Below the pieces are notes generated by a model, which saw only the letters and a program-made list of their open reading frames with translations, had not been told where the DNA came from and did not search any database. A DNA stretch of 64,000 nt from Candidatus Poribacteria bacterium (GTDB taxonomy: Bacteria; Poribacteria; WGA-4E; WGA-3G), in the NCBI GenBank assembly GCA_965198235.1, contig OZ240248.1:1856001-1920000 (forward strand). Direction: 5' to 3'. The stretch's first letter is position 1, and every line of letters begins with the position of its first letter. The position numbers and the translations under genes are program-made. This document shows positions 4,120-59,635 of this stretch, in pieces.

Positions 4120-4246
4120 GTATCAGCTATCAGCCTTCAGCAATCGGCTATCAGCAAAGAGGTTCTCTTTCTCAGACTCTCCCACGCGCTTCAAAAGCTT
4201 TGTATCAGTAGGCGTGGGCGAGTCTGTGCTGACCGCTGACTGCTAT
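4120..4246. repeat. 7-mer-based palindromic repeat (family F3: cagctatcagc...gctgactgct)
   Basis: Tandem heptamers on both arms; related copies at ~2750, 23540-23695, 31880-32005, 43921-44016 (in recG) and 59560-59600. Confidence 0.7.
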
Positions 4247-5223: not shown

Positions 5224-5387
5224 GACTTTTTATCCGCTCATAATTCAGAGTCGGTTAGACTTAGCCGAAAACCGGGGTCCCCGCCCGTTACTGGGGAAGG
5301 GGTTTTTGATAGGGTATTTCTTCGGATTTCTTCGGATTTCTTCGATGAAACATAGTGGAACGATGTCCAGGTTTTAATAGTTAAAAA
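5183..5387. repeat. Composite repeat (family F1) carrying an A/C-rich modular insert on the minus strand
   Basis: Matches 48468-48510 and 48549-48610; inserted ggggtttttgatagggtatttc(ttcggatttc)2. Confidence 0.7.
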
Positions 5388-14368: not shown

Positions 14369-14417
14369 CGCTGGCGAGGTTTCCTGGGGGAAATCCGCAG
14401 AAATACCCCTCGCCTAC
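14369..14417. repeat. GTAG-type REP hairpin (family F4, ggcgaggtt..aacctcgcc) with modular insert in the loop
   Basis: Compare uninterrupted copies at 33987-34011 and 36013-36038. Confidence 0.7.
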
Positions 14418-23516: not shown

Positions 23517-23690
23517 GATGGGCAACAGATGCCTCAAGTGGCTATCGGCAGTCGGCTATCGGTTGTCAGTCACAAGAGGTGTTAGGACTATCAAGGGAAA
23601 TCCGCAGAAATCCGCAGGGAAATCCGCAAAAACACCCTCTTTTAGGCGCAAGCCTCTATGGGCTTGCGGGACAATGCTGACCGCCGATGG

Positions 23691-40130: not shown

Positions 40131-40507
40131 GTTGGGTTGAACGGGAACCTCCTAAAAATCGCACATAGAAAATGATTTTCGGGGGGCATCAAGAAACCTA
40201 AAATTACCGAAATACGAGTGAAACCCAACACATTCTCACGCCTACAGTGCCTGGATTGTTGGGTTTCGTTATATCTATCTACACCAATGGAACATCGAAA
40301 CGCGATATCCTCTGTATAAACGAGATGGACCTTTGTCTTTCATTGCTCAACCTGGGGGAAAAAGAAATACGCAGAAATACCCTATCAATACGCAGGGAAA
40401 TCCACAGAAATACCCTATCAAAAACCCCTATCAAAAACCCCAAGCAAAAACACCCCTATCAAAAACCCCTACGTCTACTTGAATTTTTATTATCGAACTC
40501 ACGTTAA
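40126..40507. mobile_element. Long REPIN/MITE-like element (GTAGGTTGGGTTGA...TCAACCCAACCTAC) with modular insert
   Basis: Colinear with 60312-60605 over about 270 bp; internal gaaacccaac/gttgggtttc inverted pair. Confidence 0.75.
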
Positions 40508-40579
40508 CAATAAATCCCTATCTTTTTCCAAATGTGATATATTAAAGAAAACTCTCATTTCACTAAGGTAAAATCGCTT

Positions 40580-42573: not shown

Positions 42574-43390
42574 AACCCAAGTTGCTGCTAATAAATTTTG
42601 GACGTTCCAATAGGGTTCTTCAGGCACTCCCCACCCCGTAGGGGTGCTATGTCTATAGGAAACGGCGTATTCCAGCAACCGCACCCCGTAGGGGTGCCAT
42701 GTCTATAAATAGGTGACAACTTACGTTAGACATAGCGAATTCTAAGGGGAACACAAGAACTTATGGCGAACACCTATACTCAACTCTATGTACATATCGT
42801 GTTTTCTGTAAAAGGTAGACACGCACTTATTCCCGAATGTCACAAAGCAGAACTTCATAAATATATCACTGGCATCATCACTAATAAGAAACAGAAATTG
42901 ATTCAAATCAATTCGATGCCAGATCACATCCATATCTTGGTTAGTATGACTCCGGATACTGCCCTGTCTGGTTTGGTGAAAGATATTAAAGTAAATTCGA
43001 CGCGCTTTATCAATCAGAAACGCTGGACTGCGGGGCAATTTGCGTGGCAAGAGGGGTTTGGTGCGTTCAGTTATTCCTATTCTCAGATACCTGAGGTCGC
43101 TGCATATATTGAAAATCAGGAGACACATCATTCACGACGGTCATTTCGTGAGGAATATCTTGCGTTCTTGGAGCGTTTTGGGGTTGTGTATGATGTAAAG
43201 TACGTTTTTGATTCAGTTGCAGATCTCCCACCTGAAGAATGATTTATGGGCACAGCGTGGGTAAGCCACCTTTTTATTCACATAGCACCCCTACGGGGTG
43301 CGGGCCCCTGAGAAACGGTTTTTCTATAGACATAGCACCCCTACGGGGTGGAGAAAGTACCTAAAGAACCTTATTGAAGTGCCCAAAAAT
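42574..43390. mobile_element. IS200-type / REP-associated transposase locus with flanking hairpin repeats
   Basis: CACCCCGTAGGGGTG(C/G)..TGTCTATA twice on the left (42632, 42682) and twice inverted on the right (43281, 43325), plus about 40 bp of further imperfect inverted repeat. Confidence 0.8.
42763..43242 (+). CDS. tnpA: IS200/IS605-family Y1 HUH transposase
   Basis: YVHIVFSVK.R, DHIHIL (HUH), FAWQEGFGAFS, YIENQ..HH. Confidence 0.9.
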   Translation: MANTYTQLYVHIVFSVKGRHALIPECHKAELHKYITGIITNKKQKLIQINSMPDHIHILVSMTPDTALSGLVKDIKVNSTRFINQKRWTAGQFAWQEGFGAFSYSYSQIPEVAAYIENQETHHSRRSFREEYLAFLERFGVVYDVKYVFDSVADLPPEE

Positions 43391-43399
43391 AGAAAAAAT

Positions 43400-46249
43400 A
43401 TGAACAATTTTACAAAAATCCTTACCACTATCCGTCGTCCCTTTCAACAAGAACTCCGAAAGGGGTGCCGCGACGATGTTGTCGTCAATGGATTGGGGAA
43501 CTATGTCCAGTTGTGGGTAAAGAATGGAGAGACCTTCACATTGGAGGCAGCTGAAAAAGAGGTACTCAACGATTTGTCAAACCTTTTTGAAAATTATGCC
43601 GACGCATCGTCCACCGAACGCCAACGCATACTTGGGGATGCGACAAAACGAATTGACACGGCACTCGGGCACGGACAACGAAACGTCTCGGATAGAGTCG
43701 GGACAGGTGTCGAACCGTCGCAAACACGCCAGCAGCCAAAGTCGCAACGTACAAATTCCAAAAAGAGTGCCCAAACGGATATGTTGTCTCTCTTTGCGGA
43801 AGTAGAAAGTAGCCCGAAAAGCGCGCCTCCAGCGCAGGAACAGGCAGTGGAACGTCCAGCTTCTACGGTGCCAACGGAGCATTTATCCCTTCTCCAAGAC
43901 ACAGACACTTCGTCACAGCGAAATAGCCATCAGTCATCGGTTTCCATCGGAAACCATCAGCAAGAAGTAGCCGTCAGCAGGCCCGCTGACCGCCGACTGC
44001 TGACGGCTGACCGCCAATCAGAATCTGTCCCAATCTCAGATACCCCTGTTTCAACAGACATCGATTTGCTTGACTTTCTATCCCAACCGCTTCAGTATCT
44101 CAAAGGGATTGGTCCGCGTCGCGCCGAAATGCTTTCGACAGAACTCAATATCCAAACGGTTGGCGAATTACTGGCATATTACCCGCGCGATTACATTGAC
44201 CGCTCCAAAATGGTAGAGATTTATAGGGTGGGTAGAACAGAAGATGACGAACCGGAAACAATACAAGGCAAGGTCGTCAATCATACCTCGTCTCCGACAG
44301 CGAAAGGGAAACGCATCGGTAAGATCTCAATTTACGACGGGACTGGTATCGCATTGCTCGTTAATTTCGGCAGGCGTATCGGCATTATGAAAGCACTACT
44401 CCCCGTTGACACCGAGGTTGTCGTCAGCGGTAAATTCTCTCGCCGCTACAATGAAATCCAAGCCACGGACTATGAATTTGAACTGTTTGAAGAAGAAAAC
44501 TTAATCCACACAAATCGAATCGTTCCGAAATATCCGCTCACGGCGAAACTCACGGCGAAGATGCTGCGTGCTTGGATGCGGACCGCATTAGATGAACATG
44601 GACAGCAGATACCTGAGATCTTGCCACTCACACTTCGCCAACGGCAACGCTTGGTTGACAGACAATCCGCCATTAACGAGATCCATTTTCCGACATCGGA
44701 GGCACATCGGGAGGCGGCGCAAAAACGGCTCGCTTTTGAGGAGTTTTTTCTGCTCAGTGTCGGGATGGAGATGAAAAAGGAACGTCGTATCTCGGAGGAC
44801 GGTATCGCGTTTCGAGTTGGAATGGAAGGGAAACCTGAAACGTCTCCGTCCCTGTTACAGGATTTTCTTGCTTCGCTTCCTTATGAACTCACAGGGGCGC
44901 AAAAACGAGTTTTCGCTGAAATCCAAAACGATATGCAGCAGAAAACCGTCATGAATAGACTCATTCAAGGGGATGTCGGTTCGGGAAAGACGGTTGTTGC
45001 AGCGATGGCGTTGCTCTGTGCTATCGAAAACGGGTATCAAGGCGCGCTGATGGTTCCTACTGAAATCCTCGCCGAACAACACTATTATAATCTCTCAGAG
45101 ATGCTCAAGGATTTGCGCAGGGATGCTGAACAAGCCGGTAACGAGAACATAAACGTTGTGCTTCTTAAAAGTGACCTGCCAAAACCAGAACGCGAAGAGG
45201 CACTGGCGGCAATCGCCGATGGCACCGCAGACCTCATCGTTGGAACACAGGCGTTGATACAGGAAGGGGTCGATTTTCACAGACTCGGGCTCGTTATCAT
45301 CGACGAACAGCATCGGTTCGGTGTGATGCAACGCGCAACGCTCCGTAACAAGGCACAATCAGCAAATGGAACGCAAAAGCAAGATGCCGCAACCCCTCCA
45401 ACACCGGACGTACTCGTCATGACCGCGACCCCGATTCCAAGAACACTGGCATTGACGCTCTATGGGGATCTGAACGTCTCTGTTATCGATGAGATGCCCC
45501 CCGGTAGACAGACGATTAAGACCTATTGGATAAAAGAGAAAGAACGAGAGAAATTATACAGCACTGTTCGGAAGGAAATTCAACGCGGCAGACAGGCATA
45601 CATCGTCTACCCACTCGTTGAGGAGTCCGAAAAACTGGAAGAACTCAAAGCCGCCACAGAAATGGCATCGCATCTTCAAAGTGAGATATTCCCCGATCTG
45701 CGTCTCGGGCTTCTGCATGGGCAAATGAAATCCATTGAGAAACAGGAAGTGATGACGAACTTCAAGGATCGACACATAGATATCCTTGTCTCAACAACGG
45801 TGATTGAGGTAGGCATTGATGTTCCAAACGCGACGTTGATGATCATTGAGAATGCAGAACGGTTTGGGTTGTCGCAATTACATCAATTGCGTGGACGTGT
45901 CGGACGTGGTGAGCATCAATCGACGTGTTACCTTGTCGGTTCACCCAGGGGTGACGACTCTTTTCAGCGCATTCAAGCGATGATTCGGACAAACAACGGC
46001 TTTCGGATTGCAGAAACGGACTTGAACATCCGCGGTCCGGGGGAGTTCTTCGGTACACGCCAATCGGGCATCCCAAATTTCAAGATTGCGAATATCATCC
46101 ACGATGCTACACTTTTGGAAGCGGCGAAAAAAGAGGCGGAGTTGCTAATCAAAGCCGATCCAGTACTGAACGCACCTGCGCATCAATTGCTGAAGCGGAT
46201 GTTACAGAAACACTGGCGAGACAATTTGGAGATTGCATCCGTAGGTTAG
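43400..46249 (+). CDS. recG: ATP-dependent DNA helicase RecG with long N-terminal extension
   Basis: LKGIGP, RLAFEE, QGDVGSGKT, DEQHRFG, MTATPIPR, QLHQLRGRVGRG, RGPGEFFGTRQSG. Confidence 0.95.
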   Translation: MNNFTKILTTIRRPFQQELRKGCRDDVVVNGLGNYVQLWVKNGETFTLEAAEKEVLNDLSNLFENYADASSTERQRILGDATKRIDTALGHGQRNVSDRVGTGVEPSQTRQQPKSQRTNSKKSAQTDMLSLFAEVESSPKSAPPAQEQAVERPASTVPTEHLSLLQDTDTSSQRNSHQSSVSIGNHQQEVAVSRPADRRLLTADRQSESVPISDTPVSTDIDLLDFLSQPLQYLKGIGPRRAEMLSTELNIQTVGELLAYYPRDYIDRSKMVEIYRVGRTEDDEPETIQGKVVNHTSSPTAKGKRIGKISIYDGTGIALLVNFGRRIGIMKALLPVDTEVVVSGKFSRRYNEIQATDYEFELFEEENLIHTNRIVPKYPLTAKLTAKMLRAWMRTALDEHGQQIPEILPLTLRQRQRLVDRQSAINEIHFPTSEAHREAAQKRLAFEEFFLLSVGMEMKKERRISEDGIAFRVGMEGKPETSPSLLQDFLASLPYELTGAQKRVFAEIQNDMQQKTVMNRLIQGDVGSGKTVVAAMALLCAIENGYQGALMVPTEILAEQHYYNLSEMLKDLRRDAEQAGNENINVVLLKSDLPKPEREEALAAIADGTADLIVGTQALIQEGVDFHRLGLVIIDEQHRFGVMQRATLRNKAQSANGTQKQDAATPPTPDVLVMTATPIPRTLALTLYGDLNVSVIDEMPPGRQTIKTYWIKEKEREKLYSTVRKEIQRGRQAYIVYPLVEESEKLEELKAATEMASHLQSEIFPDLRLGLLHGQMKSIEKQEVMTNFKDRHIDILVSTTVIEVGIDVPNATLMIIENAERFGLSQLHQLRGRVGRGEHQSTCYLVGSPRGDDSFQRIQAMIRTNNGFRIAETDLNIRGPGEFFGTRQSGIPNFKIANIIHDATLLEAAKKEAELLIKADPVLNAPAHQLLKRMLQKHWRDNLEIASVG

Positions 46250-48360: not shown

Positions 48361-48887
48361 TTTTTTAACTATGTGCTTCTGATCATCGTTCCAAATGTAA
48401 AGCATTCTCGCTGCGAAGCAAAATTATGCCATTTAAGGAAACCTAATTTCGTTCCACGATGGTTTTTGGTGAATTCCGATGCGACTGAAGATATGTACGA
48501 TTCTTAAGAGGGTAGGAGAACCTAAGACTGATCCCTACTACCCATTGTAATCCAGAGACGGTTAGACTTAGCCGAAAACCACCGTGGAACGATGCCCAGA
48601 TTTAATAGTTTATAGTAAAGCCCGAAAATATGTGCACATAGAGGATTTAGGGACCTCCCGCCTCGCTGGCGAGGTTTCCTTGGGGAAATCCGCAGAAATA
48701 CCCTATCAATACGCAGAAATACCCAAGCAAAAACACCCCTATCAAAAACACCTCGCCAACTCTAATGTGTATAGGTAATTATAGGCTTTACTATAATAAC
48801 CCAAGTTGCTACTAAAAAGTTTAGGGCATTTCAAGAAGAGGTTTAGACAATTTCCCCACCCCGTAGGGGTGCTATGTCTGTAGAAAA
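48361..48887. repeat. Nested composite of F1, F6, F4, modular insert and a solo tnpA-end repeat
   Basis: Each part matches copies elsewhere in the window. Confidence 0.75.
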
Positions 48888-53423: not shown

Positions 53424-53468
53424 TCTGAATCACGGATTATCGCGGATTTCGCAGATTCCACGGATTTT
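53424..53468 (-). repeat. 9-mer tandem repeat (family F8, aatccgcga...gattcaga)
   Basis: Opposite-orientation copies at 55197-55242, 55261-55300 and 55402-55440. Confidence 0.7.
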
Positions 53469-55071: not shown

Positions 55072-55676
55072 CGGATAACTCCTTTCTAATGAGATTGTAT
55101 TGTAGCACAATCTTCCTTTAGGGTGTGGTCTAAAAAACCGATGGCAGTACAGTTCTTATCCCGATGGCCCCGTAGGCTTGACGGGAGGAGTCTCCAAAAA
55201 TCCGCGAAATCCGTGTCATCCGCGATAATCCGCGATTCAGACGAATCAGCCACCGCTCTTATCCTGAAAATCCTTTAATCCTGTAAATCCTGATTCAGAC
55301 AACTCTTACTGTGAGGCAAACCAACGAACCACAACCTAACAAGTTTATGCTACAAAACACCCCTTTATCTATATCCCGGTGCCGACAACGGACACCCCTT
55401 AAAAAATCCGTGAAATCCGCGACAATCCGCGATTCAGATAATTGAGATCCGGTCTGAAAAACACTGATACAATAAGTTAAATGTAATTTCACAATTGTTT
55501 TTTCACGGAGAACAGGCATGTTGTGTTCTGGGGAGCCACGGCCCGCCTATGCCGGTAAAAATCTCCGTGAAACCTCCGTGAAAACCGGAATATTCCTGCG
55601 TTTTTTCGGAGTACCGTTTTGCACAAAAATGCCGATAACTGAAAACTGAGCACTTCTTCAAAGGAGAACGAGAAAT

Positions 55677-59536: not shown

Positions 59537-59635
59537 TCTGCTTTTTCCTTTCTTGAAGAATAGTTGTCAGTTATCAGTTATCGGTTTTCAGTTAAGAGCA
59601 TTTCTTGTAACAATCAATTTAACCCCAATTGATAA

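Follow-up and report, generated by a model that had tools for sequence, protein, structure and literature searches.

The small dispersed repeats (SDRs) of the Nostocaceae, which Elhai et al. are said to have described in 2008, reportedly measure 21-27 nt, are mobile between relatives and lie nested in other repeats and in each other, by a mechanism described as unknown. To our knowledge, how bacterial elements shorter than about 30 nt spread is still unexplained. Other intergenic mosaics, such as BOX of Streptococcus pneumoniae (boxA-(boxB)n-boxC) and the enterobacterial bacterial interspersed mosaic elements (BIMEs), combine a fixed module order with a variable internal module. Here we analyse a 64,000-nt stretch of the chromosome of a sponge symbiont, a Candidatus Poribacteria bacterium, referred to as the window (G000:C1:1856001-1920000), and a family of A/C-rich tracts represented in it by the tract at 40354..40467 on the plus strand. 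Our reading, which we hold with a probability of about 0.55, is that these tracts belong to a mosaic micro-repeat that is specific to the genus, neither codes for protein nor forms a palindrome, and is made by templated copying from one copy to another.

The genome that contains the window (G000) comprises a 5.12-Mb chromosome and a 44-kb second contig, with 48% G+C and an estimated completeness of 96.3%. Its tracts were read as chains of the units A (GAAATCCGCA and variants, 10 nt), E (GAAATTGAG), B (GAAA[C/T]ACCC), C ([AAG/TAT]CAATACGCA) and D ([AAG/TAT]CAAAAAC(A)CCCC, 13-15 nt). The unit GAAATCCGCA occurs 87 times on each strand, and unit chains numbered 327, against 19 in the reversed, non-complemented genome. 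Merging left 314 chains, and removal of 50 short ones without a diagnostic unit left 264 tracts totaling 10,924 nt. In the window, the motif GAAATMCSC was found 15 times where 2.29 matches were expected (maximum of 6 in 100 dinucleotide-preserving shuffles), and 12 of the 15 fall inside five tracts. A preliminary description of the window, made from the sequence alone, had listed these same five tracts with the same vocabulary, and the genome-wide unit scan placed exactly five in the window, none of which had been overlooked. The tract at 40354..40467 consists of a G-run followed by A-B-C-A-B-D-D-D-D (tokenised part 40364-40466, ABCABDDDD). The others are A-B-C-B-D-D at 48681..48750 (+), a minimal A-B at 14386..14408 (+), three A units (AAA) interrupting a D-like unit, between TATCAA and AAACACCC, at 23589..23637 (+), and A-A-B-D in a GAAATCCGAA variant at 5299..5344 (-).

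The same description had seen the modules as written in different orders at each locus. The transition analysis revealed instead a polar grammar and no shuffling: the pattern [A/E]* B (D* C [A/E]* B)* D* accommodates 251 of the 264 tracts, only the counts vary, and not one instance was seen of A->D, A->C, B->A, B->B, D->A, D->B, C->D or C->C. Runs of A contain 1-5 units and runs of D 1-4, while unit C is absent from 218 tracts, single in 37 and double in 9. The commonest form is the bare B-D core (GAAACACCC followed by AAGCAAAAAC; 19-25 nt), found in 140 of the 264; longer forms have A units added 5' and D units added 3' of this core. In its sequence, unit C unites the 5' half of D with the 3' half of an A variant, so that long tracts are made up of A(n)-B-D(m) blocks connected through one fixed junction. 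A plain variable-number tandem repeat (VNTR) was rejected, given four unit types in polar order at 264 loci, where only the A and D runs are VNTR-like. The lengths (median 24 nt, maximum 199 nt, at least 40 nt in 93 of the 264) agree with the earlier remark that the tracts have no fixed size, and the four or more G-runs needed for a G-quadruplex on the G/T strand are present only in the longest. A strong strand bias had also been reported; it holds for composition (A 48%, C 31%, G 15%, T 6%) and not for orientation: 114 tracts are plus-strand and 150 minus-strand, and 0.5-Mb bins along the chromosome show no obvious change of preference.

Tracts at loci that are otherwise unrelated come to share one sequence. 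One A-B-D-D-D variant of 63 nt, with a GAGG-type B unit, was found at five loci with unrelated flanks (61-63 nt; G000:C1:4768744-4768806, 2775704-2775764, 1415071-1415133, 1098218-1098280 and 5054474-5054534). All five copies lie inside open reading frames (ORFs) of at least 200 aa and are read in different frames (e.g. ..GNPQRKHPIKNPKQKPQAKTP.. and ..GKSAEETPYQKPQAKTPSKN..). The variant corresponds to an older 24-nt core plus 39 nt (13 codons). At the orthologous site of one of these loci (T129) a partly diverged B-D core of 19-24 nt is present in the relatives G018, G006 and G024, and a different 84-nt sequence in G014; at that of a second (T204) such a core is present in G018, G014, G024 and G006; and a third variant locus has other forms in G018 and G014. 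As the same 39 nt, including an A unit foreign to the B-D core, appeared at several loci, this change is not local slippage and a template elsewhere was needed. A second case concerns the tract starting at 48682, which has an exact 66-nt twin at G000:C1:2402295-2402362 in a different hairpin host family. Within its own host family, defined by the same flanks and terminal inverted repeats (TTATAGTAAAGCCC / GGGCTTTACTATAA), the tracts read ABDD, ABCBDDD and AAABDDD, and the sister host copies T009, T017 and T078 share its flanks and carry different tracts. Since the twin lies in a foreign host family and the own family carries other tracts, tract content is uncoupled from host descent, the hallmark of a family whose copies undergo ectopic conversion or template switching with one another. 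The earlier conclusion that neither plain slippage nor one fixed miniature inverted-repeat transposable element (MITE) explains the tracts is therefore upheld, by identical multi-module tracts at loci with unrelated flanks and by old 22-24-nt cores that were replaced at orthologous sites by one and the same 63-nt variant. Homogenisation from copy to copy would also explain why the vocabulary is identical in every species.

A comparison of orthologous loci, as the preliminary description had proposed, revealed turnover between sister species. The syntenic 80 kb of five single-contig relatives is collinear with the window, with genes 80-92% identical and alignments that break at intergenic gaps. 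At the orthologous sites in G018, G014, G024 and G006, all five window tracts are missing. Copies are gained, resized by whole units, and decay or are lost between these species. Three gains were found in G024: a 25-nt core that takes the place, in a leader cassette, of the 3 nt seen in G006 and G014, a 23-nt core in a MITE arm whose motif is uninterrupted in G006, and an E-E-B-D-D tract just 5' of a hairpin that is bare in G006. Changes by whole units include E+B-D-D in G006 against B-D in G024 and nothing in G014, as well as E+B-D in G024 against B-D in G006. An old, oppositely oriented core shared by G006 and G024 differs at 3 of 24 positions, about like its flanks. The hairpin at 23589 contains this reversed, decaying B-D core in G006 and G024, and in G000 three A units within a TATCAA/AAAC unit; at the 5299 site, G006, G014 and G024 carry another cassette.

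Searches across taxa point to a genus-specific Poribacteria repeat. The core GAAACACCCAAGCAAAAAC, with up to one mismatch, was present in 24 of 24 same-genus genomes (9-195 copies; 179 in G000) and in none of the 16 genomes that represented seven further genera of the order, and the reversed control pattern gave no match in any genome scanned. With one genome per species, the exact core gave 80 records among the matches listed, of which 77 bear the title Candidatus Poribacteria or uncultured Poribacteria, two that of 'uncultured bacterium' and one that of Pyrinomonadales. The last record (L133) is a core copy in a metagenome-assembled genome (MAG) of another phylum and may be a mis-binned contig. 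One exact core was also seen near a contig end of a viral record (L175; IMGVR_UViG_2740892559_000001, 77886-78504 of 78,675), which may be a provirus or host fragment.

Low complexity, together with the finding that no single short-read contig covers the whole tract at 40354..40467, as expected for a repeat, would suit an assembly or sequencing artefact. This explanation is refuted, and we give it a negligible chance: the vocabulary recurs in 24 further same-genus genomes as well as in public MAG records with several isolate and contig naming schemes, and contigs from runs of two studies, one of which may be the source sample, match unique flank and tract with 0 differences over 39984-40420, 40440-40534 and 40128-40434. 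Tract-like sequence was also found in contigs of two RNA libraries (X6 and X7); none of it could be tied to this locus, and it is not proof of transcription.

The preliminary description had likened the tracts to the product of a telomerase-like or defence-associated (DRT-type) reverse transcriptase, an enzyme that would reiteratively copy a short template RNA and jump at A/C microhomologies. Several features lend this idea some appeal: the C/A-rich strand, with CCCC runs spaced by A-rich stretches, has the look of a telomere repeat, the A and D units stand in head-to-tail runs, and the joins fall at short shared motifs. We nevertheless regard it as very improbable. The strict polarity and the single fixed C junction are unlike free template jumping, the modules being strictly ordered and not freely recombined. 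The statement that the window encodes no reverse transcriptase was correct and extends to the whole genome, as RVT_1 (PF00078) gave no match in the two contigs of G000. Among the 24 same-genus genomes RVT_1 was found in 14 and not found in 10, the latter including the single-contig genomes G006, G007, G014, G018 and G024, which carry 39-195 core copies. Primase-polymerase (Prim-Pol) likewise gave no match in G000, and Rfam at its gathering threshold gave no family match in the window. Nor did the expected master template beside a reverse transcriptase or Prim-Pol come to light: the eight longest tracts showed no common neighbouring gene, no dedicated genome-wide search for a master locus having been made. 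Templated repair of the non-homologous end joining type was rejected on the zero matches for Ku in G000. What survives of the earlier proposal is copying with jumps at microhomologies, since the joins do lie at short shared motifs and templated copying at the DNA level is plausible.

The position of the tracts is related to other repeats, not to genes. When the tracts were masked for ORF calling, those with two co-directional neighbours had the A/C strand as sense in 81 cases and as antisense in 109, and 48 tracts lie in divergent and 26 in convergent gaps. The resulting 72/18/10% compares with a genome background of 72/16/12%, and no gene-linked orientation bias was detected among the 264. 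In contrast to this indifference to genes, tract flanks fall into a few dozen recurrent families. Several of these hosts are found both empty and filled: the hairpin GGCGAGG-loop-CCTCGCC (188 empty strand-reads, about 94 loci, and 25 filled), GGTGCGG-loop-CCGCACC (28 empty strand-reads, 4 filled), GCGAGC-loop-(G)CTCGCT (41 empty, 12 filled), GGGGTTAC-AAA-CCCCTCC (38 empty, 3 filled) and CTCAACC-CAA-CCTAC (45 empty, 5 filled; 38 and 9 with a looser pattern). Some host hairpins bear a GTAG tag (e.g. GGTAG-GTGCGG and GTAGGA-GCGAGC), given as a trait of classical repetitive extragenic palindromes (REPs) by Di Nocera 2013 (PMC3733652). The joins are alike from host to host. On the 5' side a pyrimidine-rich half-loop is followed by T, TT or TA and then by the G-run; on the 3' side, 36 of the 49 filled copies show CAAAAAC/A followed by CC. 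Each of the 25 filled GGCGAGG hairpins has its tract on the strand whose half-loop reads TTTCC, TTTCT, TTAC, ATAC or TGTC, with no case of the complementary reading, and comparisons of filled with empty sites revealed no target-site duplication.

Not all tracts lie in loops. Some are located just 5' of a hairpin, in leader cassettes, or inverted within the B/D junction of another core. About 15 of the 264 lie deep inside ORFs of at least 200 aa, and a few tracts look like low-complexity inserts in long frames that may be real genes.

Complementary arms bracket three of the five window tracts. The tract at 14386..14408 occupies the loop of a REP-type hairpin (arms GGCGAGG 14373-14379 and CCTCGCC 14408-14414), and tract plus arms fold as a closed loop (z -3.39; 0 of 200 shuffles fold as well). 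That at 48681..48750 lies in the loop of a GGCGAGG/CCTCGCC REP-type hairpin (arms 48667-48682 and 48743-48758), and the fold again closes the arms around it (z -2.69); its MITE-like host spans 48610..48796 and ends in 14-nt terminal inverted repeats (TTATAGTAAAGCCC at 48610-48623 and AGGCTTTACTATAA at 48783-48796). The third is enclosed by the arms AAGAGGTG (23574-23581) and CACCCTCTT (23633-23641). The tract at 40354..40467, folded alone, is unstructured (-1.9 kcal/mol, z +1.2; 176 of 200 shuffles fold equally well or better). The earlier remark that there are no terminal inverted repeats is thus true of the tract itself; for the surroundings it fails, given the arms around three tracts, the terminal repeats of the 48681 host and the split inverted-repeat arm at 40354..40467.

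This last locus is a composite insertion of about 420 nt (40095..40513, +), made of a MITE-like repeat, the tract and a conserved 3' tail, between a small ORF and a nucleoside hydrolase gene. The insertion is missing at the orthologous site of G014, where the segments matching query positions 245-495 and 914-1888 lie 4 nt apart and the stop of the antitoxin-like ORF runs straight into the conserved ...TTCCTATCTTTTT. The left arm of the host, ACGTAGGTTGGGTTGAAC (40125..40142), contains GTAG and is the reverse complement of the right-arm motif CTCAACCCAACCTACG, uninterrupted in 38 empty copies. Here the tract splits that motif into a 5' half, GCTCAACC (40345..40352), and a 3' half, CCCTACGT (40467..40474), directly after the tract; the split arm reads GCTCAACC | CCTACGT. 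In family terms, empty copies read GCTCAACCCAACCTACG and filled copies GCTCAACCT-tract-CCTACG. The MITE-like repeat has 20 BLAST copies in G000, and the right-arm motif was counted 38 times uninterrupted and 9 times filled, to which the copy at 40354..40467, missed by the pattern, is added. The filled copies are polyphyletic, with a mean host identity of 0.49 and an empty nearest neighbour for 5 of the 9; only three form a recent group, 92% alike. Their cores are near-identical despite the divergence of the hosts, which implies that the same motif was hit repeatedly and recently relative to host divergence. The small ORF upstream (39829-40092, +), which G014 and G006 also conserve, resembles the Phd/YefM antitoxins weakly (E 1.2e-4, short of the Pfam cut-off); further upstream, a 620-aa TPR-repeat protein (37836-39698, +) accounts for a 102-nt tandem repeat at 39174-39557.

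Repeated hits on one motif are also what an enzyme would produce. A Y1 HUH transposase of the RAYT (REP-associated tyrosine transposase) or IS200-IS605 kind could cut REP-type hairpins in or beside the loop and paste or copy the module, making it a micro-transposon mobilised in trans. Six Y1_Tnp genes are encoded in G000: three are IS200-like, and the other three are RAYT-like and stand between inverted REP hairpins; one of the latter (42763-43242, +; Pfam Y1_Tnp, E 7e-27; flanks 42576-43388) lies 2.3 kb from the tract at 40354..40467. All 24 same-genus genomes contain Y1_Tnp, REP-type hairpins, in part GTAG-tagged, make up many of the hosts, and the uniform joins and the orientation, fixed in all 25 hairpins, would agree with such an enzyme. 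As Y1_Tnp is also found in 12 of 16 sister-genus genomes that lack the module, its presence is compatible with the data and not diagnostic. The module has no hairpin or tag of its own, inverted doublets are rare (8 inverted pairs within 300 nt among the 264 tracts), the 5' joins vary by 1-3 nt, and the overwriting of an old core by a longer variant at the same site is a prediction of conversion, not of transposition. Taken together, these features make a transposase a possible but rather unlikely agent. Integron-like attC core sites (RYYYAAC/GTTRRRY) were considered as well, and the joins do not fit them consistently. With regard to the RAYT-like gene of the window, its REP hairpins on both sides have the form ..TAGACATAGCA-CCCCTACGGGGTG; alignments with all five relatives break at this stretch, and the syntenic gap is about 110 nt in G018, the sole relative measured.

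A further possibility is that the module is a functional cis-element under selection, either an unstructured C/A-rich RNA platform (a rut-like or RNA-chaperone site) or a DNA array for a nucleoid or regulatory protein, which hairpin arms would display as an open loop. Every species of the genus has dozens of copies with one and the same 19-mer, the module is less structured than its shuffles, and two fixed sites lie in a leader cassette whose end coincides with the start codon in at least 29 unrelated genes. Selection for such a role would not predict the absence of orientation bias, with 81 sense and 109 antisense cases and the divergent and convergent counts at background level, nor that all five window tracts are missing from the orthologous sites of four relatives. 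Moreover, sister species differ by presence and absence, a shared old copy decays like its flanks, and the ORF-internal copies are read in different frames. We consider a selected function doubtful for these reasons, and the more specific idea of a Rho-utilisation site or terminator was ruled out by the absence of orientation bias. The module is most likely selfish or neutral DNA, its sequence being kept by constant homogenisation between copies.

If templated copying between copies is accepted, the module would be a passenger at a few junctions in other repeats: loops of REP-type hairpins, some GTAG-tagged, the arm of a MITE-like inverted repeat and the 5' edge of hairpins, with leader cassettes, the B/D junction of another core and occasionally ORFs as further lodging places. 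New or refreshed copies would be made from another copy by copying anchored in homology or microhomology, through ectopic gene conversion or through replication template switching at hairpins, with 5' joins at the Y-rich stretch plus T before the G-run and 3' joins at CAAAAAC/ACC. Gain and loss of units in place would add variation, and no reverse transcriptase would be involved. A more far-reaching version, that of a conversion drive, would make the module a mobile element of less than 25 nt that has no hairpin, terminal repeats or enzyme of its own and spreads and homogenises by templated copying from copy to copy at hairpin-loop junctions of the AAC/ACC type; we put this forward as a tentative proposal, well below even odds.

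Several points weigh against copying between copies as the origin of the tracts. In terms of enzymology, neither a conversion intermediate nor a donor-recipient pair has been observed directly. At the 5' joins, differences of 1-3 nt from the empty sites of today speak against clean insertion (e.g. TTTCCTAA against TTTCCTT+GGGG), so that in some families the filled and empty forms could be separate old lineages. The copies of the MITE-like host are about 50-75% identical and are thus a poor substrate for conversion of the RecA type, and the model must lean on microhomology. The uniform joins and the fixed orientation would fit a site-specific enzyme equally well. The 19-mer is exact across species whose neighbouring genes diverge by 11-18%, which could reflect a function. 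Finally, the image of a hairpin loop fits a minority of sites, as a perfect flanking stem of at least 6 bp was found at 41 of the 264 tracts, against 3.4% of 2,000 random intergenic controls. The predicted pairing of the flanks did not differ from that of permuted flanks (-6.5 vs -6.3 kcal/mol), in a control that is confounded by arms common to the families.

Other repeats of this genome accompany the tracts. The tract at 5299..5344 lies in a leader-type cassette upstream of a gene with its start codon at about 5394. A different, conserved cassette precedes the ortholog of that gene in G006, G014 and G024. In G000 this conserved cassette, some 110 nt long, has the 3' end CCGCAAGG[A/T]A[A/T]AATTAAAAAATG and directly abuts the start codons of at least 29 unrelated ORFs, among them an EF-G-like N-terminus, sulfatase-like proteins and an ABC ATPase-like protein (examples at G000:C1 ~4609438 (+), 1698296 (-) and 4346438 (-), and C2:16598 (+)). 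A covarying hairpin (GCCTGC..GCAGGC or GCCCGT..GGAGGGC) lies within it, along with two optional, oppositely oriented core sites, and it looks like a portable leader or translation-start cassette. Tandem arrays of heptamers (TATCAGC, GGCTATC, CCGCTGA, AGTTATC) are found at 4121-4155, 23540-23562, 43983-44014 and 59562-59594 of the window and in the flanks of many tracts, which they often adjoin; CTGACTGCTGAC has 52 genome copies against 2 in the control. Heptameric arrays known as short tandemly repeated repetitive (STRR) sequences are the setting of the cyanobacterial SDRs, and the heptamer arrays of the window resemble them. A second modular family, with units of 9-10 nt (AAATCCGCG / AATCCGTG, ending in ..AATCCGCGATTCAGA), lies at 53429-53467, 55199-55236 and 55404-55432; its AATCCGCGAT has 60 genome copies against none in the reversed control, and AAATCCGC is common to it and unit A.

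The practical consequences of such a family are twofold. Its tracts break short-read Poribacteria assemblies, and they give rise to spurious ORFs: of 314 candidate chains, 98 lay inside naive ORF calls, mostly as stop-free A/C artefacts or false chains. With its strict grammar, landing junctions that also exist empty, repeated acquisition, changes by whole modules and old copies overwritten, all in a genome in which reverse transcriptase, Prim-Pol and Ku were searched for and not found, the family offers unusually clear material. If conversion drive were true, it would fall in the same unexplained class as the cyanobacterial SDRs, and the at least 12 single-contig genomes of the genus would form a natural series for donors, recipients and rates, making the movement of tiny elements directly testable. 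Among the papers that searches listed on Poribacteria and intergenic or repetitive extragenic palindromic repeats, titles and abstract openings hold no description of these repeats.

Among known systems, REPs, and the REP doublet-forming hairpins (REPINs) built from them, are related to the family mostly through its hosts: many of these are REP-type hairpins, some with a GTAG tag, and RAYT-like genes flanked by REPs are present. The tract alone does not form the hairpin-forming palindrome of a REP, as only the host arms pair, and the module has no unpaired GTAG/CGTC end tag. A REPIN-like inverted doublet was rejected, since of 18 adjacent pairs within 300 nt among the 264 tracts only 8 are inverted. 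The comparison with REP/RAYT (TnpA-REP) systems draws on Messing 2012 (PMC3479197) and on Bertels and Rainey 2011 (PMC3116915). Di Nocera 2013 (PMC3733652) describes REPs inserted into other palindromes; we describe the reverse, a non-palindromic module inside REP loops. With regard to MITEs, the tract has neither terminal inverted repeats nor a target-site duplication, and inverted repeats are a property of two of the hosts.

The likeness to BOX and BIMEs lies in the fixed order A(n)-B-D(m) chained by C, in the variable unit counts and in the lack of gene-context bias. Unlike the modules of those mosaics, which measure 30-60 nt and include palindromes, the tract units are of 9-15 nt, non-palindromic and located inside the loops of other palindromes. 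The tracts would group with the REP/BIME/BOX/SDR kind of mosaic micro-repeat, probably closest above all to the Nostocaceae SDRs. SDR work is also cited by Bertels and Rainey 2011 (PMC3116915), and, according to PMC5861425, SDR5 is inserted in HIP1 and SDRs are not found outside the Nostocaceae. The tracts come from a different phylum and, set against SDRs as described, would differ from them in sequence, in being A/C-rich, in having no self-pairing and in their ordered growth by sub-units. The structure predicted for SDRs is reportedly hairpin-like, and the Poribacteria module has no self-structure. The tracts share with the SDRs a core of 19-25 nt, below about 30 nt and dispersed (140 of the 264 tracts), a location within other repeats and nested in their own kind, as in the inverted tract at a B/D junction, and presence or absence at orthologous sites, with gains between sister species such as those of G024 with respect to G006 and G014.

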